Shown here: positions 4,559-26,622 of the stretch, one piece after another
How positions within the stretch are numbered: the first letter of the stretch is position 1
Layout of the letters: each line of letters starts with the position of its first letter
Origin: Patescibacteria group bacterium
Lineage (GTDB): Bacteria > Patescibacteriota > Patescibacteriia > S139-126 > S139-133
Length of the DNA: 27,053 nt
Direction of reading: 5' to 3'
Assembly (NCBI GenBank): GCA_049604715.1
Contig: JBMYTV010000012.1
Coordinates: forward strand, 1 to 27,053
Made by a program: the position numbers and the translations under genes
Notes under the pieces: model-generated
Seen by the model: the letters and a program-made list of their open reading frames with translations, nothing else
The model's database searches: none
What the model was told of the DNA's origin: nothing

Positions 4559-4573
4559 ACACCATTTGGTGTG

Positions 4574-4726
4574 TTATTTATTTTTTTCTAAGTCTTCTGG
4601 ACATGCGTGATGTCGTGGTACGACAGAACCATCTGCACAGAGTTTGTAGGGAGGAGTAGATACACCGTGATGCGCACGTCGTCGTCGGGTACGTCCCTTT
4701 GCTTGTCGTTTTTTCGGAACACTCAT
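4574..4726 (-). CDS. rpmF: 50S ribosomal protein L32
   Basis: My translation is MSVPKKRQAKGRTRRRRAHHGVSTPPYKLCADGSVVPRHHACPEDLEKNK. This matches the L32 pattern (VPKKKTSK.RR..RRSHHAL...C). It is in a different frame from the 75-aa ORF-track entry at 4578-4805, which is probably spurious. Confidence 0.65.
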   Translation of the reverse strand: MSVPKKRQAKGRTRRRRAHHGVSTPPYKLCADGSVVPRHHACPEDLEKNK

Positions 4727-4850
4727 AGCGGTTACAAGAGTAATAATAATAAGAGCACGGGGGTCTGATATAAAATATGCTAGAAAATTGCTCTCTAGCA
4801 GTCAAACTATAGCAAAAAAATACTATATTTGCAAGTTTTTAAGCCAAAAT

Positions 4851-4878
4851 AAAACCGCGCCAATAAATTGGCGCGGTT
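4851..4878 (-). terminator. Rho-independent terminator downstream of gyrA
   Basis: Perfect inverted repeat CCGCGCCAA/TTGGCGCGG. On the minus strand it is followed by TTTTATTTT, 17 nt after the gyrA stop. Confidence 0.55.
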
Positions 4879-4894
4879 AAGTAGTAATTCCAGG

Positions 4895-7384
4895 CTATTC
4901 TTCGCTAATAAAAGCCACTGAAGCTACTTTATCACTTCCTACTTTGAACTTCATCAAGCGCACTCCTTGGGTTGCTCTACCAAGTACTGATACTCCTTTT
5001 TGCTCCAATCGAATAACTTGCCCACGATCTGACATAACAATAATATCTTGCTCAGCATCATTACTCACCACAGCCGCAGCTACAATAGAACCGGTCTTTC
5101 CAGTAATATTAGCGGTTTTTATACCACTACCTCCACGTCCTTGGACTTTGTACTCAGTGAGTTTTGATCGTTTGCCATAGCCTTTTTCTGTAACTACAAG
5201 CAATTGTTCGTTTGAACTAGCTTTTCCTTCATTGATAAGGTCCATACCAACTACATAATCTTCCTTTTTTAACCGGATTGCACGGACTCCGGCTGCAGTT
5301 CTGCCCATAGGTCTGATATCTTTTTCTTTAAATCTGATGGCTTGTCCCTTTGCAGTGGTAATAATAACATCATCTTTTCCACTCGATCCTTTTACCCACT
5401 GAAGTTCATCATCTCCTTTAAGTCCAAGTGCAATAAGTCCTGACCTTCTTACTTTTGCAAACTGCTCACGTTCTGTTTTCTTAATTTGGCCATGCTTAGT
5501 GACCATGACTAGGTATTTATTTTCGCGGGTGGTATCAAGTGCCCGAGCGGCTGTTACATGTTCTCCAGGTCCAAGCTGTAAAAAGTTGACCATGGCCTGA
5601 CCTTTGCTGGTACGTGATCCTTGTGGAATGTCATAGCCTTTGAGTTGGAATACACGGCCCTTGTTGGTGAAGAAGAGGATATCTGCATGTGTATGTGTGG
5701 TAAATAGGTCATCGACCATGTCTTCTTCTTTGGTTGTGAGACCAATAACACCCTTACCGCCTCGGCCTTGTTTCTTAAAGGTGTCAGTTGGTACACGTTT
5801 GATGTATCCGTCCTTGGTAATAAAGACTAGAGTTGCTTCATCAGGGATCAAGTCTTCTTGTGAAAATGAGTCAACTGGTGTTGGGATAATTTGTGTTTTG
5901 CGTTCATCGCCAAACTTTTCTTTGAGCTCAATTAGTTCCTCTTTTACAACACCCAAGATTTTTTTCTTGCTCTTCAAAAGATCCTCTAGGTCTTTGATAA
6001 GTTTCTTCTTTTCTTTGAGTTCCTCTTCTACGCGTAATCGTTCTAGGTTAGCAAGTTGTTGTAAGCGCATTTCAAGAATCGCAACTGACTGGCGTTCAGT
6101 CATCTTGAATTTTTTCATCAAGTTTTCCTTTGCTTCATCTCGGTCTTTTGACTTCTTAATAGTGTTGATGATTTTATCAATTTGCTCAAGTGCCATGACC
6201 AATCCCTCGAGGATGTGTGCTCGTTCTTTTGCGCGAGCAAGATCGTATTCAGCGCGGCGGACAATAACAACTTGTCTGTGCTTGATAAACTCTTCTAAGA
6301 TCTGTTTCAAACTCAAAGTCTTTGGCTGGATACCATCAATAAGCGCCACCATGTTAAATGGGAAGCTGGTTTGTAGCTGAGTCTGCTTGTATAGTTGGTT
6401 TAGAATCTTGTTCGGATAAGCATCCTTTTTGAGTTCAATAACAACACGTATACCATCTTTGTCTGATTCATCACGGAGATCTTTAATGCCGTCAATTTTC
6501 TTGTCCTTTACAAGCGAAGCAATTTTTTCAAGGAGATTTGTTTTGTTTACAGCATATGGGATTTCAGTAATAACAATCATAAACTGACCCTTCTTTGACT
6601 CAACAATATCAGCTCGTGAACGAATCACAACAGGGCCACGGCCAGTAGCATATGCTGTGCGTATGTCTTCTTTATTAAAAATAATACCGCGAGTAGGGAA
6701 GTCGGGTCCCTGAATAAATTGCATCAGATCATCAACATCAGCATCAGGGTTATCAATCAAATGCATGGTTCCATCTACAACTTCTGTTAGGTTGTGAGGT
6801 GGGATAGCTGTTGCCATAGCCACAGCAATACCAGTAACACCGTTGAGTAGAAGATTTGGAACCTTTGTTGGAAGAACAGTTGGTTCTTTTTGTGAGCCAT
6901 CATAGTTAGCGACAAAGTCAACAGTGTCTTTTTCTATATCAAGAAGCATCTCCTCGGCAAGTTGTGTCATTTTTGCCTCTGTATAACGCATTGCTGCAGC
7001 AGCATCACCATCAATAGATCCAAAGTTGCCCTGGCCGTTAACCAGTGGATAGCGCATTGAGAAGTCTTGCGCTAGGCGAACCAAACTATCGTAAATAGCT
7101 GAGTCGCCGTGGGGGTGATACTTTGCCATTACCTCACCAACAACATTTGCAGATTTTCTAAATTTTGCACTAGCACGAAGGCCATTAGTCCACATAGCAT
7201 ATAAGATGCGGCGATGCACTGGCTTCATACCATCACGCACATCTGGCAGTGCACGTGAGACAATAACACTCATAGCATAGTCAAGGTATGACTGCTGCAT
7301 TTCCTGCACAATTGGTTGTGGCTTGATAGTGCCAATGCTGTTTTTGGGTTCGTCTATTGTGTCTTTGGTTTTTTTACTAGGCAT
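4895..7384 (-). CDS. gyrA: DNA gyrase subunit A
   Basis: The N-terminus reads [29 protein letters not shown]. The catalytic region and a C-terminal beta-pinwheel with a GyrA-box-like QGRGGKGV are present. Length is 829 aa. Confidence 0.92.
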
Positions 7385-7388
7385 ATAA

Positions 7389-7721
7389 TTAGTTTTCAGT
7401 TGATGTTGATTGTTCTAGGATGTCTTTCATTTCCAAAATGACGTCATCGTTAATTTCTGGGGTGCTTGTTGGTGTAGTGGATGCAACTTGGGTCTGAATA
7501 TACTTGTGTAACATGTTTATTTGCTCTTTTTGTCTATTGTACTCTATCTTAAGGTCTTCTGTGGAAGACGCGAGTTCGTCCCAAATACCAGGCTCTTGCG
7601 TTTCTTCAGTTGGTTCGTATGGATTGGTTGCAATAACCCATATAATCCAAAATAAAAGCAAAATAACTGTACTCACGATAACATATAGATTGCGCTTTTT
7701 TTCTAATCTGCCGTGAGACAT
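7389..7721 (-). CDS. Small membrane-anchored coiled-coil protein (FtsB/DivIC-like architecture; hypothetical)
   Basis: One N-terminal TM segment ([18 protein letters not shown]) is followed by a coiled-coil-like segment and an acidic S/T-rich tail. Its stop lies 4 nt upstream of the gyrA start. Confidence 0.45.
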
Positions 7722-7727
7722 AAGATG

Positions 7728-8390
7728 TTAAATATGTACAAGCGTTACTACCATCTCATCTTGTGGTAGGTCTTTTTTCTTTAAAGTAAGTTTTTGTGTT
7801 TCTTCGAACTTCTTTATACCAAGTTCTTTCAAAAATGCTTTTTCATCATCTACTTTAGCACTCACTCCAGAGAACTTGTAATATAGCGGTATAACCATGC
7901 GAGGCTCTAAATCTTGGACCAATCGTGCTGCTTGCTTGCCATCAAGTCTATCACCGCCGCCAATTGGAACACATAAGACATCTACAGAATCAAGAAGTTC
8001 ACGTGCCTTTGCTGACAAGTCAGTTGAAGTAAGGCTGCCAACATGACCTATCTTAATGTCTTCGCTTCCAACAACATAGACAGTACCTCCAGCTGCTCCG
8101 GCATCTGCACCATAAATAGAAATCTCGCGTGTTTCATATTCACCTGGGGTTGTGATCACAAACGCTTCTTTTGAGATAAGTTTTTTATCAACCTTACTGT
8201 CAGTTGAAATGACGACCTCTGCGTCCATTTTTGGTTGTCTGCCGCCCCATGTTTTAGTTTGAAAGGGGTCAAGTAAGATAACTGAATCACCAATGCCTGG
8301 TGATTTTACTTGCAGCCTCATAAATGTATTTCCAAAGTGTTGTAGTTGCATACTTTTTTCATCAATGTATATACCTATAGTAGCAAACAT
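7728..8390 (-). CDS. MBL-fold (UPF0173/COG2220-like) protein with degenerate metal-binding motif
   Basis: It resembles small metal-dependent hydrolases (ILLDPF; DVLCVPIGGGD...MVIPLYYK). The positions expected for HxHxDH and the late His are not histidines (ISTDSKVD, LYYK). Confidence 0.45.
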   Translation of the reverse strand: MFATIGIYIDEKSMQLQHFGNTFMRLQVKSPGIGDSVILLDPFQTKTWGGRQPKMDAEVVISTDSKVDKKLISKEAFVITTPGEYETREISIYGADAGAAGGTVYVVGSEDIKIGHVGSLTSTDLSAKARELLDSVDVLCVPIGGGDRLDGKQAARLVQDLEPRMVIPLYYKFSGVSAKVDDEKAFLKELGIKKFEETQKLTLKKKDLPQDEMVVTLVHI

Positions 8391-8443
8391 TAGCCTAAAA
8401 GTAAACTTTTTTAGGCACGTAAAAGTGTGGTGTAATAAGGTGT

Positions 8444-9091
8444 TTATATAGGCAATTCAGGCAAGTTTTTTGCCTTTTCTTTGATCTCATCAATTGTTTT
8501 GGTTTCGCGCATCTTTCCTTGGGCTGATGTTTCTGTTTCATCTCCTTTTTCTTTATACTTTGACCATGAGTTACTGCGCTGCGACGCTTTGGCGCTAGTA
8601 GTTGGTTTATCTAGTGTGTGGTATTTACCATGACGGTCTTTGTGCTCCTTGGGTGCATCAGGATCTAGTCCGCGCATTTTTTCTTCTTGTAAGCGCTCTT
8701 TCATGTATTCTTTGCTACGCTCGCGCTTTATGTCAAACTTACGTGTTCGTTTGATATTTGATTTGATGTCATTATATGAAGCATCAGTTGCAGCTCGTTC
8801 TTCCCAGGCCTGCTTGACGTTCTTTTCATACTGAGAAAAGCCTGTTTTAAGCTTTTTTGCTAACTTTGGGTCGTGCTGATGTACTAAGTCTTCCATTTCA
8901 CCCAAAGAAAGCTGTTTGCCTCTGTTTAGCAAAAATTGGCCTTGTGGTTTGCTTTTCATCGCCTTTTTTAGGGATTTTATGTCTTTATTATCCATCTTGA
9001 GCGCACGGAATATCTCGTGCTGCTCAGTTGAGGTTAGGTGCTTTTTTAGCGGGATTTTTGGTGGCTCTGATGATTGCCAGAATTTGCCCAT
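8444..9091 (-). CDS. Lys/Glu-rich hypothetical protein
   Basis: A 215-aa ORF, highly charged and low in complexity, with no recognisable domain. It is the first gene of the minus-strand block. Confidence 0.45.
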   Translation of the reverse strand: MGKFWQSSEPPKIPLKKHLTSTEQHEIFRALKMDNKDIKSLKKAMKSKPQGQFLLNRGKQLSLGEMEDLVHQHDPKLAKKLKTGFSQYEKNVKQAWEERAATDASYNDIKSNIKRTRKFDIKRERSKEYMKERLQEEKMRGLDPDAPKEHKDRHGKYHTLDKPTTSAKASQRSNSWSKYKEKGDETETSAQGKMRETKTIDEIKEKAKNLPELPI

Positions 9092-9110
9092 AATATAAGG
9101 TGTTTAAGAC

Positions 9111-9139
9111 TTGCCAAAAGGTACTTTTTCTTGTAGACT
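9111..9139 (+). promoter_or_regulatory. Candidate sigma70-like promoter (TTGCCA-N17-TAGACT) upstream of rpsA
   Basis: The hexamers and spacing were read directly from the sequence. The site lies about 120 nt upstream of the rpsA ATG in the divergent intergenic region. Confidence 0.25.
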
Positions 9140-9261
9140 TAGTAGGTCTTAATAAACCTCACTTTGTGTAAGACGGCTCTTTTATAGAGCTTTTATTAAT
9201 ACCTACGCTTTGTGAGACTTATAGCATTTGGCTATAGGTTAATTGTAATCTAATCATTAAT

Positions 9262-10482
9262 ATGTCACAACAGACAAAAACTGCGAGCAAGTCGTCTAAA
9301 ATGGCGGAATTACTTGCCCAAGCAGAAAAGAATTTTTTACCAAAAGTAGGAGAGTTGGTAGGCGGCGTTGTTTTAGACGCTGGTAAAAACGAAGTATTGA
9401 TCGATATCAATGGTGTTACCACTGGTATTGTTCGCGGCAGTGAGCTTGAAGATGAGTCAGGTGAATACAGTAATTTGAAAGATGGCGATACTGTCGAAGC
9501 TACTGTTCTTGAAATTGAAAATGAACGCGGCTTGATTGAACTTTCATTCCGTTATGCTGGTCACCAGCGTGCGTGGGATGGATTGCAAAAACTTCTTGAA
9601 GGCGGCGATATTATTGAGTCAAAAGTAGTGGATGCTAACAAGGGTGGTTTGATGTGTAAGGTTGGTGGTGTTGTTGGCTTTTTGCCAGTTTCACAGCTTA
9701 CACCTGAGCATTACCCACGTGTTGAGGGAGGTGATAAGAACAAGATTCTTGAAATCCTCAAAAGTTATGTAAACACCATTTTTGATGTAAAGGTTATTGA
9801 TGTTGATGAGCGGGAAACTAAGCTAATTGTTTCAGAAAAGGCAGCTTGGGAAGACAAACAAAAAGATCTTCTTGCAAAATACAATGTCGGTACTGTTGTC
9901 AAAGGAAAAGTTACTGGTGTGGTTGACTTTGGCGCATTCGTCAGTTTTGACGATAACATGGAAGGTTTGGTACACATCTCAGAACTTGCATGGCAACGAA
10001 TCGATGATCCACGTGATGTAATTCGCGTTGGTGATGATGTTGAAGCAAAGATTATTGGTGTTGAAGGTTCTAAGATCTCTCTTTCTATCAAAGCGCTTCA
10101 TAATGATCCATGGGTTGAAGTTAGTAAGAAGTACAAGGTTGGTGATTCTGTAAAGGGTAAGGTGCTTAAGCTCAACAACTTTGGTGCATTTATTGAACTT
10201 GATGCAAACATTCATGGTCTCGCGCATTTATCAGAGCTTTCAGCTCATGATGTAAAAGATCCATCAGACATTTTGCAGCCAGGTGATGTAAAAGAGTTCC
10301 GTATTGTTTCTCTTGAGCCAAAAGAGCACAGACTTGGTCTTTCACTCAAAGCAATGAAAAAGCCCAAGGCTGACAAAAAGACAGATGAAGCAAAAGAAGA
10401 AAAGAAAACCGATCAAAAGGAAGATGTAAAGGAAAGCAAAGAAGAAAAAGTAGAGGCTGAAGAAAAGACTGAAGACAAATAA
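9262..10482 (+). CDS. rpsA: 30S ribosomal protein S1 (four S1 domains plus K/E-rich tail)
   Basis: Repeated S1-domain motifs are present (GAFVSF...GLVHISEL; GAFIELDANIHGLAHLSEL). The C-terminal tail is KEEKK-rich. Confidence 0.9.
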   Translation: MSQQTKTASKSSKMAELLAQAEKNFLPKVGELVGGVVLDAGKNEVLIDINGVTTGIVRGSELEDESGEYSNLKDGDTVEATVLEIENERGLIELSFRYAGHQRAWDGLQKLLEGGDIIESKVVDANKGGLMCKVGGVVGFLPVSQLTPEHYPRVEGGDKNKILEILKSYVNTIFDVKVIDVDERETKLIVSEKAAWEDKQKDLLAKYNVGTVVKGKVTGVVDFGAFVSFDDNMEGLVHISELAWQRIDDPRDVIRVGDDVEAKIIGVEGSKISLSIKALHNDPWVEVSKKYKVGDSVKGKVLKLNNFGAFIELDANIHGLAHLSELSAHDVKDPSDILQPGDVKEFRIVSLEPKEHRLGLSLKAMKKPKADKKTDEAKEEKKTDQKEDVKESKEEKVEAEEKTEDK

Positions 10483-11018: not shown

Positions 11019-13082
11019 TTACTGGTTTGGTGTGGCCGTTGAATCGGCCGGCTGGGGTACGCCCAAACCATATTTATTTTGCATCATGCCGTTCAGTATA
11101 GTACCCATCAACGGATCAAGAAGAACGCCTTGTCCCGACTGAGCACCGCCGAGGTTTTGGGTGAAGACATCAGGAGTAATATCCGTTACACCCATTGCAT
11201 TAAGTCTGTCGAGCATTTCAAGTATGGCTACGTTCTGTGATCCGATAATATCGGCCATTGCCTCATACCGCGCGCGAAGTCCCTTGGCGATTTCTTCGTC
11301 ATACTTCCGCTGTGCTCGGCCTTTCCGTAGCATCTGCGTTTCTTCAAACGAAGCTTTTTCGCTGGCAATTTTGGCTTCCATCTTGACGGATTGCTGATCG
11401 GCTTCGGCTTTTTTCTCTTCCGCTTTGATACGCTCCTGCTGCTCCAGTTGCACCTGTTCCCATTTGAGTTTATTCTGTTCAGCCAGAACGCGCTCGGTTT
11501 GGGTCGTAAGCAGCGGCGTCGGAATATGAATTTTGCCGTAGTTAACATCCATTGTTATATAGCCCTTTGAAAGGGCCTGCATCCACATATCGGCGTACAT
11601 CAGACGTTCTTGCCGTTGACGATTTTGGAAGTAGTCCAGACACGGGACATCTTGAGCTGAATTTCTGATACTGGACCGGCTATCCGGGGTAATGGAACGG
11701 TTTTCGATTTCAATCCAGTTGCCCCACATGACAAAGGCATATGCTGCCTGGTCGCGGGTCACCTTGGCTTGAATTCTGTATTCAATAGCCATTCCAAAGC
11801 CATCCGAACTAATGGCGTCGCTGGCAAAGTCAGCGAGGCCTTCCGGTACTTTCTGATTCGATTTGAAAGTAATCCGGCCGGTTGAATCATTAACCGTAAA
11901 TCCACCTTTGTAGCTAAAGTTCTGACCCCTGGTAGAAATGGTTTTTATGTCCAAAGCTTCTCGGTGAAGCGCATACTCACCCTCGGTGAGAACATTCCAC
12001 CATACGCCCTGATACCCCTCGGGAACGAGCTTGGCTTCCACGACCATGTCTTTGGTCAGGTAGTTAAACTCTTCCGGGTAGTAGTTATGCCACTTTGAAT
12101 TTTTGTCATCCAGCCAGGTATAGTCGAATTCGGGATTTTGTTTGGTGGGTTTCCACTCAAACGGTGTCAACCCGGCTTCGATGGCAACCTGCTTAATCGG
12201 CCGATCATTTTCGGTCAAAAAGTCCGGGAACATCTTTTTCCACTTTTCGTCAGTGTAGAGTAGCTGATGGTTAAAACGCTTACCGTAGTTGCATTTGACT
12301 ATAGCCACCTCACCAGGCTTAACTTTTGTGGTTTCCAGGTCGATACTCCATTTCCACAGGTATTGATTGAAGCGATACGTACCCGGCCCAAAAGCAACTG
12401 ACTGAGGCCCTTTTTGGATGTGCTTAAGGGCATATTCGGCATCTTCCAGGATGCGCTTTTTATCAAGCTCTTCATCCCAAATAGGTGCGTACAGTTGTCC
12501 CGAGGGCATATCTTTTCCGTCACGGGCGATAAGTGTGAGTACTTTTCCGGCGGGGACGATAACATCTTCTTTTTCTTCCAGATGGTGCGTAAGTGTAAGC
12601 AGCGGAGCCCAGGTAAGTCCCGGGGGATAGATCCGCATTTGTGGTCCATTTTGACCGTCACGGGCAATAATTTGACCGGTTTCCAGTTCGGATCCAAAAT
12701 ATTTACGCTTCGCATGGACGCTATTATCTTGCGGTACGACAATGTAGAAAATAAGGAAGAGTCGCCAGAGGATTACCAGCACACCAATTAATAGCGGAAT
12801 GAGCGCAATTTTGCGCCACGCCACCGGGCTCAGGCTGGTAACAAAGCTGGGAGTATTTTGGATACGATCATATTGCTTTTTGAGCACCAAATACTCTTCG
12901 TATTCTTCACGGTCTTCATCACTCACCTCGTCATCGTTCCAAACGCTACGAAACTTTTGATTCAGGGTTTGATACCGACTGGAATCAAAAGTTTCGGATG
13001 ATACGCCGTAATTGCGTTTTATCCACCAACTGATTAAAACCAGTATAATTCCGCATCCGGTTCCAAATAACAATCCAAACAT
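11019..13082 (-). CDS. Large membrane protein, SPFH/flotillin-like (tentative); G+C-rich relative to neighbours
   Basis: A 687-aa ORF with two N-terminal TM segments and a central domain. The C-terminus has an EA/K-rich coiled coil (EEKKAEADQQSVKMEAKIASE...AKGLRARYEAMADIIG) and a Gly-rich tail, reminiscent of flotillin/YqiK. Hand-counted 60-nt lines give about 45-58% G+C versus about 38% nearby. Confidence 0.6.
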   Translation of the reverse strand: MFGLLFGTGCGIILVLISWWIKRNYGVSSETFDSSRYQTLNQKFRSVWNDDEVSDEDREEYEEYLVLKKQYDRIQNTPSFVTSLSPVAWRKIALIPLLIGVLVILWRLFLIFYIVVPQDNSVHAKRKYFGSELETGQIIARDGQNGPQMRIYPPGLTWAPLLTLTHHLEEKEDVIVPAGKVLTLIARDGKDMPSGQLYAPIWDEELDKKRILEDAEYALKHIQKGPQSVAFGPGTYRFNQYLWKWSIDLETTKVKPGEVAIVKCNYGKRFNHQLLYTDEKWKKMFPDFLTENDRPIKQVAIEAGLTPFEWKPTKQNPEFDYTWLDDKNSKWHNYYPEEFNYLTKDMVVEAKLVPEGYQGVWWNVLTEGEYALHREALDIKTISTRGQNFSYKGGFTVNDSTGRITFKSNQKVPEGLADFASDAISSDGFGMAIEYRIQAKVTRDQAAYAFVMWGNWIEIENRSITPDSRSSIRNSAQDVPCLDYFQNRQRQERLMYADMWMQALSKGYITMDVNYGKIHIPTPLLTTQTERVLAEQNKLKWEQVQLEQQERIKAEEKKAEADQQSVKMEAKIASEKASFEETQMLRKGRAQRKYDEEIAKGLRARYEAMADIIGSQNVAILEMLDRLNAMGVTDITPDVFTQNLGGAQSGQGVLLDPLMGTILNGMMQNKYGLGVPQPADSTATPNQ

Positions 13083-16289: not shown

Positions 16290-16390
16290 ATCTTATCAAG
16301 AGTGAGCTGAGGGAATCGGCCCTGCGACGCTCCGGCAACTTGCCTATATGGTAAAGTGCTTCTTCCGACCCATTCTTGGGGAAGATAAGT
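16290..16390 (+). promoter_or_regulatory. SAM-I (S-box) riboswitch aptamer
   Basis: The sequence reads TCTTATCAAGAGTGAGCTGAGGGAATCGGCCCTGCGACGCTCCGGCAAC...GGGGAAGATAAG. It matches the S-box consensus (P1 CTTATC/GATAAG; AGAGNGG.GGAGGGA..GGCCC..GA.GC.CGGCAAC) directly upstream of metK. Confidence 0.7.
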
Positions 16391-16423
16391 CAGTTTATAT
16401 ACCTTCTCAGGAGGTATTTTTTT

Positions 16424-16458
16424 AACCTTTTCTTTTTCGAGAAAAGGTTTTTAATTTT
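16424..16458 (+). terminator. Riboswitch expression-platform terminator
   Basis: AACCTTTTCT-TTTTCG-AGAAAAGGTT is followed by TTTAATTTTTT, 16 nt before the metK RBS and ATG. Confidence 0.6.
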
Positions 16459-16473
16459 TTATAAGGAAATTAT

Positions 16474-17511
16474 ATGTCTTTATTACCCGCAACATATACA
16501 GCCGAAAGTGTAACTAGCGGTCATCCAGATAAAATTTGTGATGCTATAGCTGATAGTATTCTTGATTCGTGTCTACAGCAAGACAGTGAAAGCCGTGTTG
16601 CTGTTGAGTGCTTTGGCTCGCATGGGCAGTTATTTATAGGTGGGGAGGTTACAACTCAAGCTCATGTAGATTACAAAACAATCGCCCAGCACTTATATAG
16701 CGCTATTGGCTATGAGGACAATTTGGATATTACTGTCGCTGTAGCAGAACAATCCAGTGACATAGCTGATGGTATCAAAGACGATGGTGCAGGCGATCAA
16801 GGAATCATGTATGGATACGCATGTAATAGTACTGAGGAATTTTTGCCTTTGGGTGTTGTACTTGCTCATAAACTTACGCAAAGACTCGAGTTTGTTAGAA
16901 GACAGGGAGTTCTCCCGTGGCTGAGGCCTGACGGAAAAGCTCAGGTGACTATTAGTAATGGCAGAGTTGTTGCTGTTGTGGTTAGCACGCAGCATTCAAG
17001 TGGGATTAGCTTGGAGGAATTGCGCGCTCAAATAATACAATACATAGTCGAGCCATTGATCGATGTGAGTGCTGTGAAGAGTATATATATCAATCCTGCT
17101 GGAACTTTTACTATAGGTGGTTTCGCAGCGGATAGTGGATTAACTGGAAGAAAAATAATGGTTGATACCTATGGGGGTGTTGTTGTGCATGGAGGCGGGT
17201 CTTTCTCTGGGAAAGATGCATCAAAAGTAGATCGTTCTGGTGCATATATGGCCCGTTACGCTGCCAAAAGTATCGTAAGTCAGGGAAATGCAAAAGAGTG
17301 CTTGGTTTCAGTTGCGTATGCTATTGGCAAGAAAGAGCCGGTAATGCTTATGGCTGTAAATGAAAACGGTGAAGATATCCAGGAGATACACAGTTTTGAC
17401 TTCAAACCAAAATCAATCATTTCACATTTGGGATTGCTCAGGCCTATTTTTGGTAGAACAAGTAACTATGGTCATTTTGGAAAAAATATTTACCCATGGG
17501 AAAACGTATAG
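16474..17511 (+). CDS. metK: S-adenosylmethionine synthetase
   Basis: ESVTSGHPDKICDAIADSILD and GAGDQGIMYGYA motifs are present. An AAGGA RBS lies 7 nt upstream of the ATG. Confidence 0.92.
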   Translation: MSLLPATYTAESVTSGHPDKICDAIADSILDSCLQQDSESRVAVECFGSHGQLFIGGEVTTQAHVDYKTIAQHLYSAIGYEDNLDITVAVAEQSSDIADGIKDDGAGDQGIMYGYACNSTEEFLPLGVVLAHKLTQRLEFVRRQGVLPWLRPDGKAQVTISNGRVVAVVVSTQHSSGISLEELRAQIIQYIVEPLIDVSAVKSIYINPAGTFTIGGFAADSGLTGRKIMVDTYGGVVVHGGGSFSGKDASKVDRSGAYMARYAAKSIVSQGNAKECLVSVAYAIGKKEPVMLMAVNENGEDIQEIHSFDFKPKSIISHLGLLRPIFGRTSNYGHFGKNIYPWENV

Positions 17512-17541: not shown

Positions 17542-17949
17542 ATGGCAAGTGTAAAACAGTTTCAGCGCAGAGCAATCGAGAGGTTGTTGCCATATGCTGA
17601 TCCGTTGCCAGTATCGTGCAATACTAAGAGATTTTGTTTGTGCAGTGGTGGTCGTTTGTACAAGTTAGGGGCGAGTCAGGGTGTGGGTACGTGTAGTGAT
17701 GTATTGGATGTTGATGTGCTTGTAGTTGGTCGCAGGCAGGTATGTGGGAGCGGTGCTTATGTTAGAAGTAGATCCTTTGCAGCTATAGTATTGATAAGGC
17801 CAGCCACCAGAAAAGAGCGTAAATTGGCTCGGGCAGGTGTTGATCAAACTATCATGACGGTAGAGTTGCTTATTGTAAAAAGGCAAACAAAAAGCACGGT
17901 ATATTTTTCAAGGTCAGGCAAGAGGTCATACTATGTTAAGCTTGCTTAA
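17542..17949 (+). other. G+T-rich, C-poor ORF (135 aa, Cys/Val/Gly/Arg-rich) or structured RNA; identity unresolved
   Basis: A strong RBS (TAAGGAGGA) lies 8 nt upstream of the ATG. The composition is atypical: a hand count of about 120 nt gives roughly 10% C and 40% G. No family was recognised. Confidence 0.3.
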
Positions 17950-18429: not shown

Positions 18430-18446
18430 TATCATATTTTAGACTT

Positions 18447-18475
18447 CAAAACCCCGCCAAGTGGCGGGGTTTTTG
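18447..18475. terminator. Bidirectional intrinsic terminator (CCCCGCC family)
   Basis: CAAA-ACCCCGCC-AAGT-GGCGGGGT-TTTT. It serves khpA on the plus strand and the first array gene on the minus strand. Confidence 0.7.
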
Positions 18476-18480
18476 TATTA

Positions 18481-18515
18481 GAAAACCTTCTACTATTAGC
18501 AGAAGGTTAAAGTTG
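18481..18515 (-). repeat. Hairpin-terminator repeat, copy A (AACCTTCT-N9-AGAAGGTT)
   Basis: One of three copies of a conserved GAAAACCTYCTRC-N5-GCAGAAGGT element. On the minus strand the stem is followed by TTTT, about 50 nt downstream of the 18565-18912 gene. Confidence 0.6.
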
Positions 18516-18564
18516 ACTTCATATATAGGTGACTGCGCTACAGGAAATGAAAAATTTGAAGTAC

Positions 18565-18912
18565 TCAGCTGGATGGGTTGCGTTTGTCATAGGCTATTGT
18601 GCTCATGAGCGCTCCAAAGGCTGCTGCAAGAAGCTGCACCAGAAACATCAAAAGAGCTGTAGATTCTTGGTGCTGTAGGCTATGATCGTGAACGATGTAG
18701 AGGCTGTGACCGAGGATATACATAGCACCAAGTGAAAGTAGGATATTTAACCAGTTTCGGAAGAAAATATTTACGATATCCATTACCATCACATGCAAAT
18801 TGTTGTTCAGGTCGTTCACTTCTCGAATCTTTGCTTCAGTCGCGTCCCATCTGTACGTTAGGGTAAAGTACAAAAGGAAAGAGACAATGATATACCACAC
18901 AAGTGTAGTCAT
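18565..18912 (-). CDS. Small 3-TM membrane protein, array member 1
   Basis: A 115-aa protein laid out as TM1, a polar loop of about 30 aa, then a TM2-TM3 hairpin (ALLMFLVQLLAAAFGALMSTIAY). Confidence 0.5.
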   Translation of the reverse strand: MTTLVWYIIVSFLLYFTLTYRWDATEAKIREVNDLNNNLHVMVMDIVNIFFRNWLNILLSLGAMYILGHSLYIVHDHSLQHQESTALLMFLVQLLAAAFGALMSTIAYDKRNPSS

Positions 18913-19105
18913 GATTATTCCTCACAAAATAGATTAAACAAAGAAATTAAAAAAGAACGAAATACATTAATTAAAAAAGCTTCATCTGATCTTACATAGA
19001 GTTTATAAGTTTGTCAAAGCGAACTTTACATATATACGCTTTTAAGTTAATGTAAACCACTAATTCAAGCTCTTAAACAATAAGTAAGTTCGTAAAGGGG
19101 AAGTC

Positions 19106-19738
19106 ATGTTCTTCCAGTATGATTATGTGTTGTTGGTCATTTTGTTTCTATTTATTTATTTTTTTAGGAAGCCTGGTTATATTCTTATTTACTCCAAAAG
19201 AAGAAGAACCGGTAGGGTGTTGTTTGTAAAAAAAACAGGCAAGAGCGCTCTTGTGATGGAGAAAGTAAAGAGTAGACCGGTCTTAATAGTCTTGCCTCCT
19301 GTTTTAGCAGATTTTGTTGAGCGCTTTATCAATGAGAATTATCAGTATGACTGGATGGGTGTGATTGGGGTAGCAATGACGTATGGGAGTATGCTTGATA
19401 ATTATAAGGTTTATACTTCACCAAAGCACGACCCATCAGTTTCAAAGTTTATGCGATATCCCAAAGAAGTACCAAGTACAGGAAGAAGGCCGATGGTGCT
19501 CAAGTTTCGTCTGAACACCTATAATGAAGCATATATGCTTCAGGGCGCGACAAAGCATGGGTTGGAACTTGAAGATTATATTATCTTCAATTTAAGAAGA
19601 TTCTATAGATACGTTGATATGCGGAAGACACACTACTTCTACTACAGGCATAAAGGTGAATATAAAAAGTTTGTTATCCATGGCCCGAACTCATATAGCG
19701 GCCCTCCTGTAACATTTGGAATATTCGACCCGAATTAA
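19106..19738 (+). CDS. Hypothetical protein with N-terminal TM, inside the array
   Basis: A 210-aa ORF with a GGGG RBS 5 nt upstream. The only plus-strand gene in the island. It has a possible Arc/RHH-like segment (MVLKFRLNTYNEAYMLQGATKHGLELEDYIIFNLRRF), which is a weak call. Confidence 0.45.
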   Translation: MFFQYDYVLLVILFLFIYFFRKPGYILIYSKRRRTGRVLFVKKTGKSALVMEKVKSRPVLIVLPPVLADFVERFINENYQYDWMGVIGVAMTYGSMLDNYKVYTSPKHDPSVSKFMRYPKEVPSTGRRPMVLKFRLNTYNEAYMLQGATKHGLELEDYIIFNLRRFYRYVDMRKTHYFYYRHKGEYKKFVIHGPNSYSGPPVTFGIFDPN

Positions 19739-19811
19739 AAAATTACAACCATCACTATTGTGATGGTTTTTACATTTTGAAAGTTTGCAAAGAGATATTT
19801 TTTTAAAAAAA

Positions 19812-19848
19812 TAGAAAACCTCCTGCTATTAGCAGAAGGTGAAAGTTC
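19812..19848 (-). repeat. Hairpin-terminator repeat, copy B (ACCTCCTGC-TATTA-GCAGAAGGT)
   Basis: The same family as copies A and C, with one stem mismatch. It lies 9 nt downstream of the minus-strand stop at 19849-19851 and is followed on the minus strand by TTTTCTATTTTTTT. Confidence 0.6.
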
Positions 19849-20172
19849 TTATGCGGAATTTTGTCTTTGAAAGTGTTTGATGCCAGCATATCGGCCGGTT
19901 ATAAGCGCGCCTATTATTGCTAAAGCAAAAACAATGACAATAGGATACTCTTTCACGACTGACAGGGTATAGTACACGGCCCATGTTAGTGGTACAATCC
20001 CGATCATAAAAACAGGAATGCCCCACGGGATGCAGATGGGTTTGATAATTTCCCAGGCAGTTGGTATTGATTCAGAAGTGGTTACTAGCTTGTCTTCTGA
20101 CTCTTCCCAAAGATAAGAAAGGATGCCAGATGTGGCAAGAATTGCAATACAGCAGAGGAAAAAGAGGATCAT
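19849..20172 (-). CDS. Small 3-TM membrane protein, array member 2
   Basis: A 107-aa protein with the same TM1-loop-TM2-TM3 layout. Its C-terminal TM (PIVIVFALAIIGALITGRYAG) resembles that of member 4. Confidence 0.5.
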   Translation of the reverse strand: MILFFLCCIAILATSGILSYLWEESEDKLVTTSESIPTAWEIIKPICIPWGIPVFMIGIVPLTWAVYYTLSVVKEYPIVIVFALAIIGALITGRYAGIKHFQRQNSA

Positions 20173-20528
20173 GTTAAGTCTCCTTTCGCTTTTCTGTATT
20201 TAAGCTTCTTCCACAGTATTTCCGTCACCACATGCAGGATTAGTCCGGCAGCTATGGTGATGGCAATTACCACCCACCAGCATATTTCAAGTTTTTTGGC
20301 GAAGGGCCATGATTCTATAATGATCCAGACAAACCCGATGATAACACCGAAAAGAAATACATACATGTATTTCTTTTCTAGAAAGTGTCGCCAGTAGTCT
20401 TGAAACCGAGTAGTACCATTCGGACGTTGATAAAGAAGTTCGTGTATTATAGACTCAACTTCAACGTGTCTGATAGTTAGGGCTATCACACACACGATAT
20501 ACAATACATACGCATAAAAAACATCCAT
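20169..20528 (-). CDS. Small 3-TM membrane protein, array member 3
   Basis: A 119-aa protein with the same layout. Its stop overlaps the start of member 2 (ATGA), suggesting translational coupling. Confidence 0.5.
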   Translation of the reverse strand: MDVFYAYVLYIVCVIALTIRHVEVESIIHELLYQRPNGTTRFQDYWRHFLEKKYMYVFLFGVIIGFVWIIIESWPFAKKLEICWWVVIAITIAAGLILHVVTEILWKKLKYRKAKGDLT

Positions 20529-20539
20529 TGGCAGCTCCT

Positions 20540-20923
20540 TTAAGCTTTTGTACTGATTTTGATAAAAAACACCTTACCTTTGAAATGCCTGTTACCAACC
20601 AATAAGCCGATAAAAGCACTGGCGACCGTAATGACAGTCGGGAAAGCATACATGCCCACGTCAGTTGGTACTGGCGATGACAGGAATACGATGATGCCGA
20701 TCCAAAGTCCAACAATCGCCAGAATAATTGATATCAGCGACGGGACCCAGATTTTTTTTAAAGAGATAAACTCTTTAAAAGTTTTGTACTTCTTTTCTGG
20801 CCGTTGTAATATTTTGACGTTATACGTCAATTCAGCCATGGCCAGCAGGAGAAAAACTAAGATGATGCACCAAATAACAAACATACCAAACATGGTAGAT
20901 ACCTCACAAAGAAAATTAAACAA
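20540..20923 (-). CDS. Small 3-TM membrane protein, array member 4
   Basis: A 127-aa protein with the same layout. Its C-terminal TM (PTVITVASAFIGLLVGNRHFKG) is similar to that of member 2. Confidence 0.5.
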   Translation of the reverse strand: MFNFLCEVSTMFGMFVIWCIILVFLLLAMAELTYNVKILQRPEKKYKTFKEFISLKKIWVPSLISIILAIVGLWIGIIVFLSSPVPTDVGMYAFPTVITVASAFIGLLVGNRHFKGKVFFIKISTKA

Positions 20924-20987
20924 ACATAATTATAAAGGTGCTGCCTGCGCAATTTACAACGTTTTTACTGATATGTAAAGTTTAAAT

Positions 20988-21022
20988 TATAAAACCTTCT
21001 GCAAATTGCAGAAGGTCAGTAT
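20988..21022 (-). repeat. Hairpin-terminator repeat, copy C (ACCTTCTGC-AAATT-GCAGAAGGT)
   Basis: A perfect 9-bp stem. On the minus strand it is followed by TTTT, about 20 nt downstream of the gene ending at 21041. Confidence 0.6.
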
Positions 21023-21040
21023 TGTTTTCAAGGAGTAGCA

Positions 21041-21355
21041 TTATGCTTGTTTTGATCTCTTTCTTTTCTTTCTAAAGAGACTTTTAAAATCGATTTCCTT
21101 GATGTAGGGTATAGCCCATGAGATGAATATCCCGAGTGTCACTGAGATGAGAAATAAGCCCATATGACCCATTGACTGCCACTTGGTCATCTGCGTTGGT
21201 ATGACAATAAAGTGACCAATAACAGACACAGCGAGCAATCCGTAGCTAATAAGATTATCATCTTCTTCGTGGTGCCATGCCCAGAATATCATGCCGCTTG
21301 AAGTTGCGTAACCAATGATTATAAAGATTAACCCAATATTTGTTTCCATATGCAT
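21041..21355 (-). CDS. Small 3-TM membrane protein, array member 5
   Basis: A 104-aa protein with three hydrophobic helices and a basic C-terminal tail (RKKRKRSKQA). Confidence 0.45.
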   Translation of the reverse strand: MHMETNIGLIFIIIGYATSSGMIFWAWHHEEDDNLISYGLLAVSVIGHFIVIPTQMTKWQSMGHMGLFLISVTLGIFISWAIPYIKEIDFKSLFRKKRKRSKQA

Positions 21356-21391
21356 CCTCTTGTTAAATGAGTGTATTACTAATACTTGGTG

Positions 21392-21745
21392 TTATTTTGA
21401 TACTTCGCGCCAAAGGCGTACCATCAGCGTGCTTGTAAGCCCAACAATCAAACCGGCAAGAATTTCAAGTACCGGCAGTAGTACTGCTAATAGTACAATA
21501 AACTGTGCATTGACAGGGAAGTTGACTGGCGGCGTGAAGTATAGGTAGAGCTGGTATGCGGTACACCCTAAAAAGATTACTAAGGTGATTACGAATAAGG
21601 TCTTTTTGGCGTGGAAGGCTTCAACCCAGTTTTTCTTTTTACTTAAGTACTCAGTAATATCTGGCTCATCAGTTCCACGTATACATATTTGGTATGTAAC
21701 AAATGCAACAATAACTAACTTTAATACATGCAGAAACAAAATCAT
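21392..21745 (-). CDS. Small 3-TM membrane protein, array member 6
   Basis: A 117-aa protein with the same layout, including a polar loop (CIRGTDEPDITEYLSKKKNWVEAFHAKKT). Confidence 0.5.
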   Translation of the reverse strand: MILFLHVLKLVIVAFVTYQICIRGTDEPDITEYLSKKKNWVEAFHAKKTLFVITLVIFLGCTAYQLYLYFTPPVNFPVNAQFIVLLAVLLPVLEILAGLIVGLTSTLMVRLWREVSK

Positions 21746-21855
21746 AATAACTCTCCTTTACTAAGATGGAAATGGAAGTATTATTTCAGTTTTACGTTTG
21801 GTGTGAACAATAACACCATCTGATTCATACCAGACATAGTCTGCGTGGTATTGTT

Positions 21856-22194
21856 TCAAACACAACGTAACAAAATCTCATCCTCATAATTGGGAGGAAA
21901 ACAAAGTCTAAGCTTTTGTAGTGACGCAGGTGTAAATTTAAATGAAACACGGTAAAATGTCGGACCTATTTTCTGCGAGATAACAGGCAGTGCCGACTGT
22001 TTGCCGTACTGTTCTCGTTTGAGCCATTTTTTATTTTTCCGGTAATACAGCATCCAGTTAAGCGCTGTTCTCATAATCATGCCCTTACTTTTTACTTCAT
22101 GTACATCCTGTAATTGCCTGATGAATTGAAATAAAACCACATCCAAACGAACCATAACCTGTACAGGCTGTTGTGGACTTGGTATCTTCTTCAA
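21856..22194 (-). CDS. Small basic soluble protein, possible ribbon-helix-helix regulator
   Basis: A 112-aa ORF with a TTG start. It has a beta-strand-like VQVMVRL followed by two predicted helices (DVVLFQFIRQLQDVHEV, MIMRTALNWMLYY), consistent with an RHH fold. This is a weak call. Confidence 0.35.
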   Translation of the reverse strand: MKKIPSPQQPVQVMVRLDVVLFQFIRQLQDVHEVKSKGMIMRTALNWMLYYRKNKKWLKREQYGKQSALPVISQKIGPTFYRVSFKFTPASLQKLRLCFPPNYEDEILLRCV

Positions 22195-22212
22195 GGCTAT
22201 CTCCTGTTGTTA

Positions 22213-22671
22213 TTATTCCTTCTTTTGTAATGAATTGGCGGCTTTGGTGAACAACCAAAATACAATACCAAAGAAAATAATACTACCAACAACAAAGTGT
22301 ATGTTAATAAGCATCATATTACTAGGCGTGCAAATACGTTGCCAGACATCATCTATTGTCTGCTTTTTAGCAGCTGCGGATTCGTACGAGCCCATATGCG
22401 CTAAGCAATAGATCCCACTAAGGGCTATGACCTCCCCAATGATGAGTATCAAAGAGATAGCAAAGGGTAAAAGCAGCGAAACTCGTTCGTGCGGATATAC
22501 TTTTTGTATCTCTGGTTGGAGGCCAAATAGCCACAGGAGCCAAATGAATGCGCATATTACTGATACAATAACCCACTTTTTAATAGCCTCGCTATTTTTT
22601 AATGCTAATTCTGTAATGTAGGCATACTTAATGTGATGAAGCCACTGTGAAACAAAGCTTTGCTGTCTCAT
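22213..22671 (-). CDS. Small 3-TM membrane protein, array member 7 (152 aa)
   Basis: Three TM helices with a soluble N-terminal part of about 30 aa. It is divergent from trmD. Confidence 0.45.
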   Translation of the reverse strand: MRQQSFVSQWLHHIKYAYITELALKNSEAIKKWVIVSVICAFIWLLWLFGLQPEIQKVYPHERVSLLLPFAISLILIIGEVIALSGIYCLAHMGSYESAAAKKQTIDDVWQRICTPSNMMLINIHFVVGSIIFFGIVFWLFTKAANSLQKKE

Positions 22672-22752
22672 AATACATCCTCTTTTTTAGGGTTTGAATT
22701 ATATTTGCTTTTAGGTTATTCTCAAACTGTATTTATTTGTCTAAGTGCTGTG

Positions 22753-23474: not shown

Positions 23475-23834
23475 GTGTCAAAAAAGGCATTAATAAAACT
23501 GAGAAATCAAAGACGTAAGGAGAGTAAGCACAAGAAGAAAAGAGAAGTAATGGAAGGATATGTGGGTTTGGGCGTTGCTGGAGAATTAGATAAAGGTTAT
23601 TATCAGGTGCATTATGGCACTAATCCCAAAAGGGGTTATCATGTTTGTTATTTTAATGGAGAGAGTTGGTATTTGTATAATCTTCATCCGATTATTAGGA
23701 TGGGTGAAAGAGTGCGAAAACCAAATCATATCCTCACACAGAGATTGACCGGAAGGGTTACTGCATCAAGGATATTTTATCCAACAAAAGATACTAAACC
23801 CCAAAACCCACTCAGGATGAGTTATTATAGATAA
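23475..23834 (+). CDS. Basic protein with one W/Y-rich ~50-aa repeat (uncharacterised domain)
   Basis: GTG start with a GGGGA RBS. The repeat is GYYQVHYGTNPKRGYHVCYFNGESWYLYNLHPIIRMGERVRKPNHIL. The N-terminus is K/R-rich. Confidence 0.55.
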   Translation: MSKKALIKLRNQRRKESKHKKKREVMEGYVGLGVAGELDKGYYQVHYGTNPKRGYHVCYFNGESWYLYNLHPIIRMGERVRKPNHILTQRLTGRVTASRIFYPTKDTKPQNPLRMSYYR

Positions 23835-24006: not shown

Positions 24007-24726
24007 TTGGTTAAGAAAAAAGGGAAGTTGATTAAGCCAGGTAATGGCGGAGGCAAGAAGCAACAAAAGGAAGGCGTAAAAGTAGTCAATGATGGCTACA
24101 TGCTCACCAGGGATGCGTATCCCTTGGAGGAGGGTTTCTACCGGGTTCATTATGGGTTTGACCGAGAAAAAGGTTACTATACGTGTTTTTTTAAGAAAGA
24201 GAACAGGTGCTGGTATATGTATAGTGATCACCTTTCAATTAAATGCGGTGAAAGGGTTACAAAACCGCAACACGTTCTTCCGGGACGAATAATAGGTCGG
24301 ATAGAAAAAGATCCCAGATTTATCCCTTCTCCATATGGAGCGGCAAAGCATCCTCTTAAGAAGCTTAAGTCCGTTGTACCCGTTCACACTAATGTTAAGA
24401 AGCAGAAAAGAAAAAAGGTGAAGGTAATTTCGGATGATTTTGTTCTCACCAGAGATGCTTATGCTCTGCCGTTGGAAAAAGGATTTTACCAAGTACATTA
24501 TGGTATTGATCCTGATACGGATTATTACAGGTGCTATTATGATGGAAAATTTTCGTGGTACATGTATGGCGACCACAAATTGATCCACAAAGGTGAGCGT
24601 GTGCGAAAGCCAACCCATGTAAAGCCTGAAAAGTTGACCGGTCCTTCATTTACAAGGCAGCTTATCAACTGCCCACCCAAAAATACTTCCGTAAAGAATC
24701 CTCTTAAGAAAACTATCTTTGATTAA
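24007..24726 (+). CDS. Basic protein with two copies of the W/Y-rich ~50-aa repeat
   Basis: TTG start with an AGAGGTG RBS. The repeats are GFYRVHYGFDREKGYYTCFFKKENRCWYMYSDHLSIKCGERVTKPQHVL and GFYQVHYGIDPDTDYYRCYYDGKFSWYMYGDHKLIHKGERVRKPTHV. It is paralogous to the 23475-23834 protein. Confidence 0.6.
   Translation: MVKKKGKLIKPGNGGGKKQQKEGVKVVNDGYMLTRDAYPLEEGFYRVHYGFDREKGYYTCFFKKENRCWYMYSDHLSIKCGERVTKPQHVLPGRIIGRIEKDPRFIPSPYGAAKHPLKKLKSVVPVHTNVKKQKRKKVKVISDDFVLTRDAYALPLEKGFYQVHYGIDPDTDYYRCYYDGKFSWYMYGDHKLIHKGERVRKPTHVKPEKLTGPSFTRQLINCPPKNTSVKNPLKKTIFD

Positions 24727-25152: not shown

Positions 25153-26622
<1,470 letters not shown>

Follow-up and report, generated by a model that had tools for sequence, protein, structure and literature searches.

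A lineage-specific island of small membrane protein genes between khpA and trmD in a member of the Patescibacteria

Introduction

What is a run of seven small membrane protein genes doing between khpA and trmD of a patescibacterium, and how did it come to be there? The locus lies on contig JBMYTV010000012.1 of a metagenome-assembled genome (MAG) deposited at NCBI as "Patescibacteria group bacterium" (locus tags ACPGO5_048xx). The contig was analyzed over its entire length of 27,053 nucleotides (nt), which we call the window. Between khpA and trmD it carries an island of about 4.3 kb with nine tightly packed genes: seven minus-strand genes for proteins of 102 to 152 amino acids (aa) with three transmembrane (TM) segments, designated m1 to m7 from the khpA side; a gene for a basic protein of 112 aa (b112); and a plus-strand gene for a membrane-anchored protein of 210 aa (p210). 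An earlier reading of the same DNA, referred to here as the original prediction, had described this block as a candidate uncharacterized system resembling immunity or bacteriocin resistance cassettes. Our answer, which as a whole is tentative and held with less than even confidence, is that the nine genes form a genuine accessory island peculiar to this lineage, likely of horizontal origin, that encodes stand-alone membrane proteins with a protective (immunity or exclusion) role.

Nine genes between khpA and trmD

The nine open reading frames (ORFs) of the island are real genes. In all nine, the codon log-odds score is highest for the annotated frame among the six possible ones, and a Shine-Dalgarno (SD) sequence is located 5 to 7 nt upstream of the start codon, which also holds for b112 with its TTG start and for m4 when read from its internal ATG, against a baseline of 20% of all ATGs in the window that are preceded by such a sequence. 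The island has a coding density of 80.5% and contains 10 ORFs of at least 100 aa and 7 ORFs with at least three TM segments, compared with 0.24 and 0.003, respectively, in block shuffles. Related loci comprising 1.85 Mb and about 2,100 called genes contain 43 small genes that encode three or more TM segments, just one pair of which is adjacent. The codon log-odds per codon are low in the island (0.01 to 0.10, versus 0.11 to 0.54 for conserved genes). The product of m3 is absent from the NCBI annotation and on record solely from a Logan gene call; that m3 is nevertheless a real gene is argued by the AAGGAG site upstream of it and by its coupling to m2. For m4, three versions exist: 117 aa from the SD-preceded ATG (called in Logan as well), 127 aa from an upstream TTG, and 114 aa at NCBI.

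TM segments were called by two Kyte-Doolittle hydropathy scans. Each of m1 to m7 features three hydrophobic segments, the middle one of m1 passing the laxer of the two scans only. A common layout is found in m1 to m4 and m6: TM1 at residue 1 to 4, then a long loop leading to a hairpin of TM2 and TM3, and finally a tail that is short and basic. The first loop of m5 is short and its tail strongly basic (RKKRKRSK), and m7 has an N-terminal extension of 33 aa and a long loop between TM2 and TM3, so that the single architecture initially ascribed to all seven proteins holds for the other five members but not for these two. The m proteins are predicted to be inserted with the N terminus outside and the basic C-terminal tail inside. 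In the remaining points of gene content the original prediction was accurate: there are seven small membrane protein genes on the minus strand, m3 and m2 overlap by ATGA (positions 20169 to 20172), the plus-strand gene with an N-terminal TM segment is p210, and the small basic soluble protein is b112, which contains 20 lysine or arginine residues versus 7 aspartate or glutamate residues and no TM segment.

Promoter-like sites are positioned upstream of m7, m6, m4, and m1, and the units end in terminators. The hairpin ACCTTCTGCnnnnnGCAGAAGGT, described earlier as a terminator present in three copies, indeed occurs exactly three times in the window (0 expected by chance), each time directly 3' of an island gene, namely, m1, m2, and m5. 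As minus-strand RNA, all three copies have folding energies of -13.6 to -16 kcal/mol, and a U-rich tract comes after each of them. Their two variant positions form G·U pairs on the minus strand and A·C mismatches on the plus strand; because the variants pair on the minus strand only, it is the minus-strand transcript that is under constraint. Downstream of b112, no terminator was detected by the consensus scan. An Rfam search of the region from 17.5 to 25.2 kb at a permissive threshold gave sub-threshold terminator-like matches only, no tandem DNA repeats of note were detected, and neither flanking direct repeats nor an att-like site was found around the island.

The khpA-trmD junction in related genomes

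In most of the Patescibacteria loci that were retrieved by means of TrmD, the distance from khpA to the downstream trmD is below 150 nt and rimM is missing, whereas gaps of about 450 to 500 nt, which offer room for rimM, occur mainly in loci from outside the Patescibacteria. The block has therefore been inserted between khpA and trmD, as proposed originally. The accompanying statement that it sits where rimM would join the two genes is not borne out: since khpA normally abuts trmD in this phylum, rimM is not expected at the position of the island.

The nearest genome, L002 (WFTG01000031), encodes a TrmD that is 72% identical and a 16S rRNA that is 93.3% identical to those of the window. Its gene order is flippase, ligase, khpA, a 400-nt AT-rich spacer, trmD, and 16S rRNA, and the spacer contains no array and no convincing gene. 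Scans with TrmD found no closer relative, the best matches being 72% identical in the genome collection and 54% identical in JGI metagenomes. The same architecture was not found beside khpA and trmD among the loci fetched, and the closest genome is without the array. Of the two features that the original prediction had named together as speaking against a genuine array, absence from related genomes applies to L002, whereas a lack of coding signal does not apply, all nine genes having the best frame and an SD sequence.

Other genomes hold unrelated cargo of 1.4 to 4.5 kb between khpA and trmD. The junction is therefore a recurrent insertion point, and the island is one lineage-specific filling of it. 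As judged by eye, the cargo of three Moranbacteria-type loci (L004, L006, and L009) is a long minus-strand ORF of 477 to 525 aa, possibly of the Mur-ligase/FPGS type, and that of L060 (positions 5872 to 9988 of that locus) comprises three long plus-strand ORFs of 320 to 433 aa. Other junctions contain a high-GC run of several ORFs or two small TM ORFs. Upstream of trmD in L003 (positions 3700 to 7400), a run of long ORFs (246 to 370 aa) was seen by eye, and khpA was not detected.

At the right edge of the island, gene callers extend trmD upstream (to a TTG at 22660, or as a version of 235 aa) and thereby into the start of m7, within positions 22660 to 22752. The N terminus MRFDIITIF, which is exactly common to L002 and L003, indicates that the start of trmD is more likely the ATG at 22753. 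With the insertion, trmD must use a promoter at the island edge instead of being cotranscribed with khpA.

Duplication and divergence within the array

The similarity between m2 and m4, which had been described as weak, proved to be significant. In a BLASTP comparison with word size 2, the two proteins match with an E value of 0.003 and 32% identity over 87 aa, collinear from end to end, and a MAFFT alignment contains 36 identical columns; the E value of 8.8 in the initial comparison was a seeding miss. Both the Smith-Waterman and the hhalign scores of this pair exceed those of all 266 comparisons of members with controls. A second match links residues 50 to 109 of b112 to residues 33 to 86 of m6, i.e., loop 1, TM2, and the turn, with 32% identity over 62 aa and a BLASTP E value of 3e-4 when the two are compared alone and of 0.004 when they are compared as part of the set. 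On this alignment, the C-terminal half of b112 is a putative diverged copy of this region of m6 that is no longer hydrophobic.

Similarity is also seen in the regulatory DNA. A 39-nt leader, SD sequence included, is common to m1 and m4 (77% identical), and the first helices of the two proteins correspond (VWYIIVSFLL and IWCIILVFLL). The TM spacing common to m1 to m4 and m6 was present in 0 of 26 control small three-TM proteins. A common origin is suggested by this spacing, seen in five members, together with the regulatory DNA that they share. Neither leave-one-out hidden Markov models nor profiles built from m2 and m4, with or without m6, separated the members from unrelated small TM proteins. 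In the all-versus-all comparison, m2/m4 and m6/b112 reached significance, and the other pairs stay at background. In sum, the comparisons support the interpretation of at least some members as diverged tandem paralogs.

A related pattern is displayed by two orphan genes located between trmD and the 16S rRNA gene, which together contain three copies of a domain of about 110 aa (G[FY]YxVHYG ... WY[ML]Y ... GERVxKPxH), the copies being 38 to 39% identical. Both genes have the hairpin CCTGTCGATAATCGACAGG downstream and a 25-nt element (96% identical) upstream; they match no Pfam family, form singleton clusters, and have no counterpart between trmD and 16S rRNA in L002. As these copies keep near-identical regulatory DNA, local duplicates in this genome retain regulatory DNA while their proteins diverge, and in the membrane array this process of duplication, conservation of regulatory DNA, and protein divergence seems to have gone further.

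Base composition and Shine-Dalgarno sites

The GC content at fourfold-degenerate sites is 0.397 in the island (466 sites), compared with 0.247 in core genes (2,015 sites; z = 6.1) and 0.251 in two core membrane proteins (418 sites), and the GC content of intergenic DNA over all positions is 0.33 (3,151 nt). The island and the core also differ in translation signals. In 12 of the 13 conserved core genes (gene starts 282 to 23412), no SD sequence precedes any start codon within the first 45 codons, and none was present at the four core-gene starts examined in L002. The 3' end of the 16S rRNA gene, near 26610 to 26622, keeps the anti-SD sequence (...CACCTCCTTTCT, with CCTCCT). This motif has been lost in part of the Parcubacteria according to a survey (PMC9297842) and is retained here. 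Because of the differences in SD use and fourfold-site GC content, horizontal acquisition of the island is suggested, from a donor that uses SD sequences and has a higher GC content.

Outside the island, SD sequences were found at the SPFH gene, metK, orf135, and g239, the last being one of the two genes downstream of trmD; these genes have either an atypical composition or no counterpart in the syntenic stretch of L002. The SPFH gene (687 aa, weak SPFH/Band 7 match) has the SD sequence AAGGAG and a fourfold-site GC content of 0.58 and is situated in a region of 47 to 49% GC versus about 39% elsewhere; it was probably acquired horizontally, and the L002 contig ends short of the corresponding position. 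The most transferable finding of this analysis is this contrast of accessory genes led by an SD sequence with core genes lacking it: if it is true genome-wide, the presence of an SD sequence could mark recently acquired genes in such lineages.

Gene neighborhood and source of the contig

Further genes on the contig encode SMC, RNase III, NusB-Nudix, GyrA, a metallo-β-lactamase (MBL)-fold protein, ribosomal protein S1, the SPFH protein, a Wzx-like flippase, and a Wzy-like ligase. Rightward, the order is S-adenosylmethionine (SAM) riboswitch, metK, khpA, island, trmD, the two orphan genes, 16S rRNA, and tRNA-Ile. The riboswitch is of the S-box type (65 bits) and precedes a short metK (345 aa). 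The metK unit and orf135 lie between the Wzy-like gene and khpA, whereas in L002 the Wzy-like gene is directly followed by khpA. The orphan ORF orf135 (135 aa) has the strongest SD sequence of the window (AAGGAGG), a negative codon log-odds score, and no family match, and it could be a gene or overlie something else. The coordinates of all features are compiled in Table 1.

Run SRR27204692 is represented in Logan by two independent contigs that match the window with 100% identity and have 27 nt in common at positions 19163 to 19189. One contig includes khpA, m1, and the start of p210, and the other extends from p210 through m7 to trmD and 16S rRNA; the whole region is also spanned by the NCBI contig. 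The assembly break within p210 could be explained by low coverage or by a strain variant within the island.

Table 1. Coordinates of island genes, regulatory elements, and neighboring features in the window
Feature	Position	Strand	Description
SPFH gene	11019-13082	-	687 aa
SAM riboswitch and metK	16290-17511		S-box riboswitch upstream of metK
orf135	17542-17949	+	135 aa, orphan ORF
khpA intrinsic terminator	18448-18473	+	Left island edge; AAAACCCCGCC-AAGT-GGCGGGGTTTT; -19.9 kcal/mol, z -4.7
Hairpin copy 1	18485-18508	-	After m1; minus-strand RNA -13.6 kcal/mol, then U-rich tract
m1	18565-18912	-	115 aa, 3 TM (2-18, 57-73, 87-103); SD GTGAGGA 6 nt before ATG; monocistronic cassette
m1 leader and SD element	18917-18955	-	Repeat D5; copy of m4 leader, 77% over 39 nt
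m1 promoter-like site	19017-18989	-	TTGACA-17-TAAGAT
p210	19106-19738	+	210 aa, basic, N-terminal TM anchor; divergent from m1; terminator 19747-19768
Hairpin copy 2	19818-19840	-	After m2; -14.3 kcal/mol
m2	19849-20172	-	107 aa, 3 TM; SD AAGGAG; last gene of m4-m3-m2 unit
m3	20169-20528	-	119 aa, 3 TM; SD AAGGAG; stop overlaps m2 start (ATGA)
m4	20540-20893	-	117 aa, 3 TM; ATG 7 nt after GAGGT; first gene of m4-m3-m2 unit
m4 leader and SD element	20899-20937	-	Copy of m1 leader
Hairpin copy 3	20993-21017	-	After m5; -16.0 kcal/mol, z -5.5
m5	21041-21349/21355	-	102/104 aa, 3 TM; two ATGs one codon apart (M-H-M)
m6	21392-21745	-	117 aa, 3 TM; SD AAGGAG
m6 promoter-like site	21807-21780	-	Consensus scan
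b112	21856-22194	-	112 aa, basic soluble, TTG start; SD AGGAG
m7	22213-22671	-	152 aa, 3 TM, N-terminal extension; SD AGAGGA; first gene at trmD side
m7-b112 promoter-like site	22698-22725	-	TTGAGA-16-TATAAT, 11/12 matches, consensus match only; in 81-nt spacer to trmD
Orphan gene 1	23475-23834	+	Between trmD and 16S rRNA
Orphan gene 2	24007-24726	+	Between trmD and 16S rRNA

Proposed role of the island proteins

The minus strand of the island is organized into three or four independent cassettes with a promoter-like site and a terminator each, i.e., m7-b112 (possibly continuing into m6-m5), m4-m3-m2, and m1, with the divergent p210 between m1 and m2. Their products are tiny membrane proteins that have basic C-terminal tails and hardly any mass outside the membrane, and part of the array arose by local duplication followed by extreme divergence. 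In the reading that we tentatively prefer, each protein would act singly in the cytoplasmic membrane, the seven not being subunits of one machine, and may neutralize a membrane-targeting toxin or block the entry of a mobile element. Single action is likelier than a conserved machine because the proteins are small, reside in separate cassettes, and diverge freely; the separate promoter-like sites and terminators count in its favor, as does b112 as a member turning soluble. Membrane immunity proteins against pore-forming or depolarizing toxins, phage or plasmid exclusion proteins, and holins are the classes with this profile, and a protective role is favored because multiple divergent copies make sense for immunity or exclusion but not for a holin. 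The assignment to immunity or bacteriocin resistance would be a best guess drawn from resemblance in size and topology.

Several observations weigh against this reading. The island is carried by one genome only, and neither a homolog, a family, or a fold match nor a conserved neighborhood that bears on function was obtained. Pfam, NCBIfam, PHROGs, and PADLOC scans of the nine proteins gave nothing above noise, and searches of a database of 5.8 billion clusters (k-mer/HMMER) with p210, m4, and m7 returned the queries themselves only. Known immunity arrays usually adjoin a toxin or toxin fragments, whereas the 27-kb contig contains no toxin, transporter partner, secretion, lysis, or phage gene and no partner ATPase; as already noted in the original prediction, no toxin or transporter partner is visible, the rest of the contig being made up of housekeeping or orphan genes. 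Within the array, member pairs other than those described above resemble each other no more than unrelated small TM proteins do. The predicted topology is derived from hydropathy and the positive-inside rule only, and the charge of loop 1 is inconsistent between members. Finally, the differences in composition and SD use could instead reflect expression level or gene age.

The individual searches were as follows. The best Pfam and NCBIfam matches had E values of 0.002 to 0.9, fell into unrelated TM families, and did not reach a curated cutoff; two PADLOC matches of m3 to the ThsA Macro domain (E = 0.06 to 0.07) were not significant. An exhaustive phmmer search of 1.84 billion representatives with p210 again found the query only, and all nine island proteins are singletons at 90% identity. 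When the nine proteins were compared by phmmer with the ORFs of the first 82 loci fetched, matches were confined to contigs of the same sample. Nothing was found in scans of IMG/VR with m7, p210, b112, and the m2-m4 alignment, in blastn searches of phage and plasmid collections with the whole block, or in a PDB sequence search with b112, p210, m5, and m7. Single-sequence AlphaFold2 models of b112 and p210 had predicted local distance difference test (pLDDT) values of 47 and 54, respectively, too poor for fold assignment, and Foldseek searches with both models gave no PDB match with an E value below 0.1. The low-confidence model of b112 starts with a strand and two helices (E11-16, H17-30, and H37-54), which is compatible with a ribbon-helix-helix (RHH) fold but is no evidence for it, and b112 has no Pfam RHH match. 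Small subunits of Mrp antiporters, small multidrug resistance (SMR) transporters, pseudopilins, and small subunits of type IV secretion systems (T4SS) were rejected as candidates, there being neither family matches nor partner genes. At the level of sequence the island is novel, with nothing detectably related to it, and the earlier label of an uncharacterized system is appropriate.

If functional, the island proteins would be sequence-novel minimal membrane proteins in a phylum with almost unknown envelope biology and host or competitor interactions, and they would provide an example of tandem duplicates that have diverged beyond recognition while their regulatory DNA is still similar. A more far-reaching version of the protective reading, which we regard as quite unlikely, would see in them a new, fast-diversifying family of stand-alone membrane "shields" of episymbiotic Patescibacteria, spread on horizontal cassettes that bring their own SD signals into a genome with an SD-less core. 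The practical value is limited, as there is one MAG and no relatives, partner genes, or culture.

Alternative explanations

The island might be the remnant of a prophage or another mobile element, made up of moron-like units with holin-, antiholin-, or superinfection exclusion-like proteins and b112 as a small regulator. The promoter-like site and terminator of each unit and the foreign-looking composition and SD use would fit this origin, as would m5, whose three TM segments, strongly basic tail, and M-H-M dual start recall class I holins, and the strand-helix-helix start of the low-confidence b112 model. However, integrase, endolysin, capsid, and terminase genes and an att-like flanking repeat are all missing, PHROGs yielded no matches, the phage, plasmid, and IMG/VR searches were empty, and b112 appears to be a decayed m6 copy, not a recognizable regulator. 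We also know of no precedent for seven holin-like genes in one locus, and we consider a mobile remnant rather unlikely.

Equally doubtful in our view is the explanation that the ORFs are proto-genes or fast-evolving young genes whose function is slight or nil, i.e., a duplicating cluster of ORFans kept by drift in a variable junction and hydrophobic mainly because the coding strand is rich in T. That the nine proteins are singletons without a homolog, that their codon log-odds are lower than those of conserved genes, that b112 has lost its TM character, and that NCBI does not annotate the m3 product are all in line with it. On the other hand, correctly spaced SD sequences, open frames, and terminators have been kept in a lineage that does without SD sequences in its core genes, and the TM spacing is regular in five members. 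Moreover, the fourfold-site GC content of 0.40 is higher than the 0.33 of intergenic DNA, and an origin from local noncoding DNA therefore does not fit. The small genomes of Patescibacteria are, in addition, not expected to retain nonfunctional DNA.

Clustering on the same strand and the translational coupling of m3 and m2 by ATGA could be taken to indicate that the proteins are subunits of a single multicomponent membrane complex, such as a transporter or an accessory module of a secretion system or pilus. This is improbable: an ATPase, a large permease, or a family of the Mrp, T4SS, or pilin type was not detected, the array is split into separately terminated units, its members are in part paralogous and not distinct conserved subunits, and no conservation was found in other genomes. 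An assembly or binning artifact in which foreign DNA was misjoined to a Patescibacteria contig, as the composition and SD use unlike those of the core and the Logan break inside p210 might suggest, is highly improbable, given that the two overlapping, 100% identical Logan contigs join the island edges to khpA and to trmD/16S rRNA and that the NCBI contig spans the region.

Comparison with known systems

Compared with the rpsP-khpA-rimM-trmD-rplS cluster, khpA and trmD flank the island in canonical order and orientation, whereas trmD is followed here by two orphan genes and 16S rRNA and not by rplS.

Class I holins (lambda S type) are proteins of about 100 to 120 aa with three TM segments, an N-out/C-in topology, and a short charged C-terminal tail. 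The three-TM layout and basic tails are present in the island, the topology being predicted from the positive-inside rule only. In contrast to holins, the island genes have no endolysin or phage context and no PHROGs or Pfam holin match, and their presence in seven copies is not holin-like.

Immunity proteins to pore-forming colicins of the E1 type have about 110 aa and three TM segments and are encoded by single genes beside the colicin on proteobacterial plasmids. Their three-TM layout is matched by all seven m proteins and their size by six (102 to 119 aa), m7 with 152 aa being larger, and a small transcription unit of their own is found in both cases. Unlike these proteins, the island products belong to no Pfam or NCBIfam immunity family, and no toxin, bacteriocin, or toxin fragment is adjacent.

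The closest analogy is provided by TsaI (DUF443) of Staphylococcus aureus, encoded downstream of TspA, a toxin of the T7SS (type VII secretion system) (PMC9484751). For TsaI, which is assigned to DUF443, five TM helices are predicted; homology among the proteins is recognizable in the N-terminal ~75 residues, and the genes are located directly downstream of tspA (PMC9484751). The island proteins differ from them in having three TM segments, no DUF443 match, and mostly unalignable sequences, and the window contains no LXG- or TspA-like gene. What the strings of TsaI genes and the island have in common is the arrangement of nonidentical genes for small polytopic membrane proteins in runs of one orientation at a variable locus, with high divergence and little sign of recombination.

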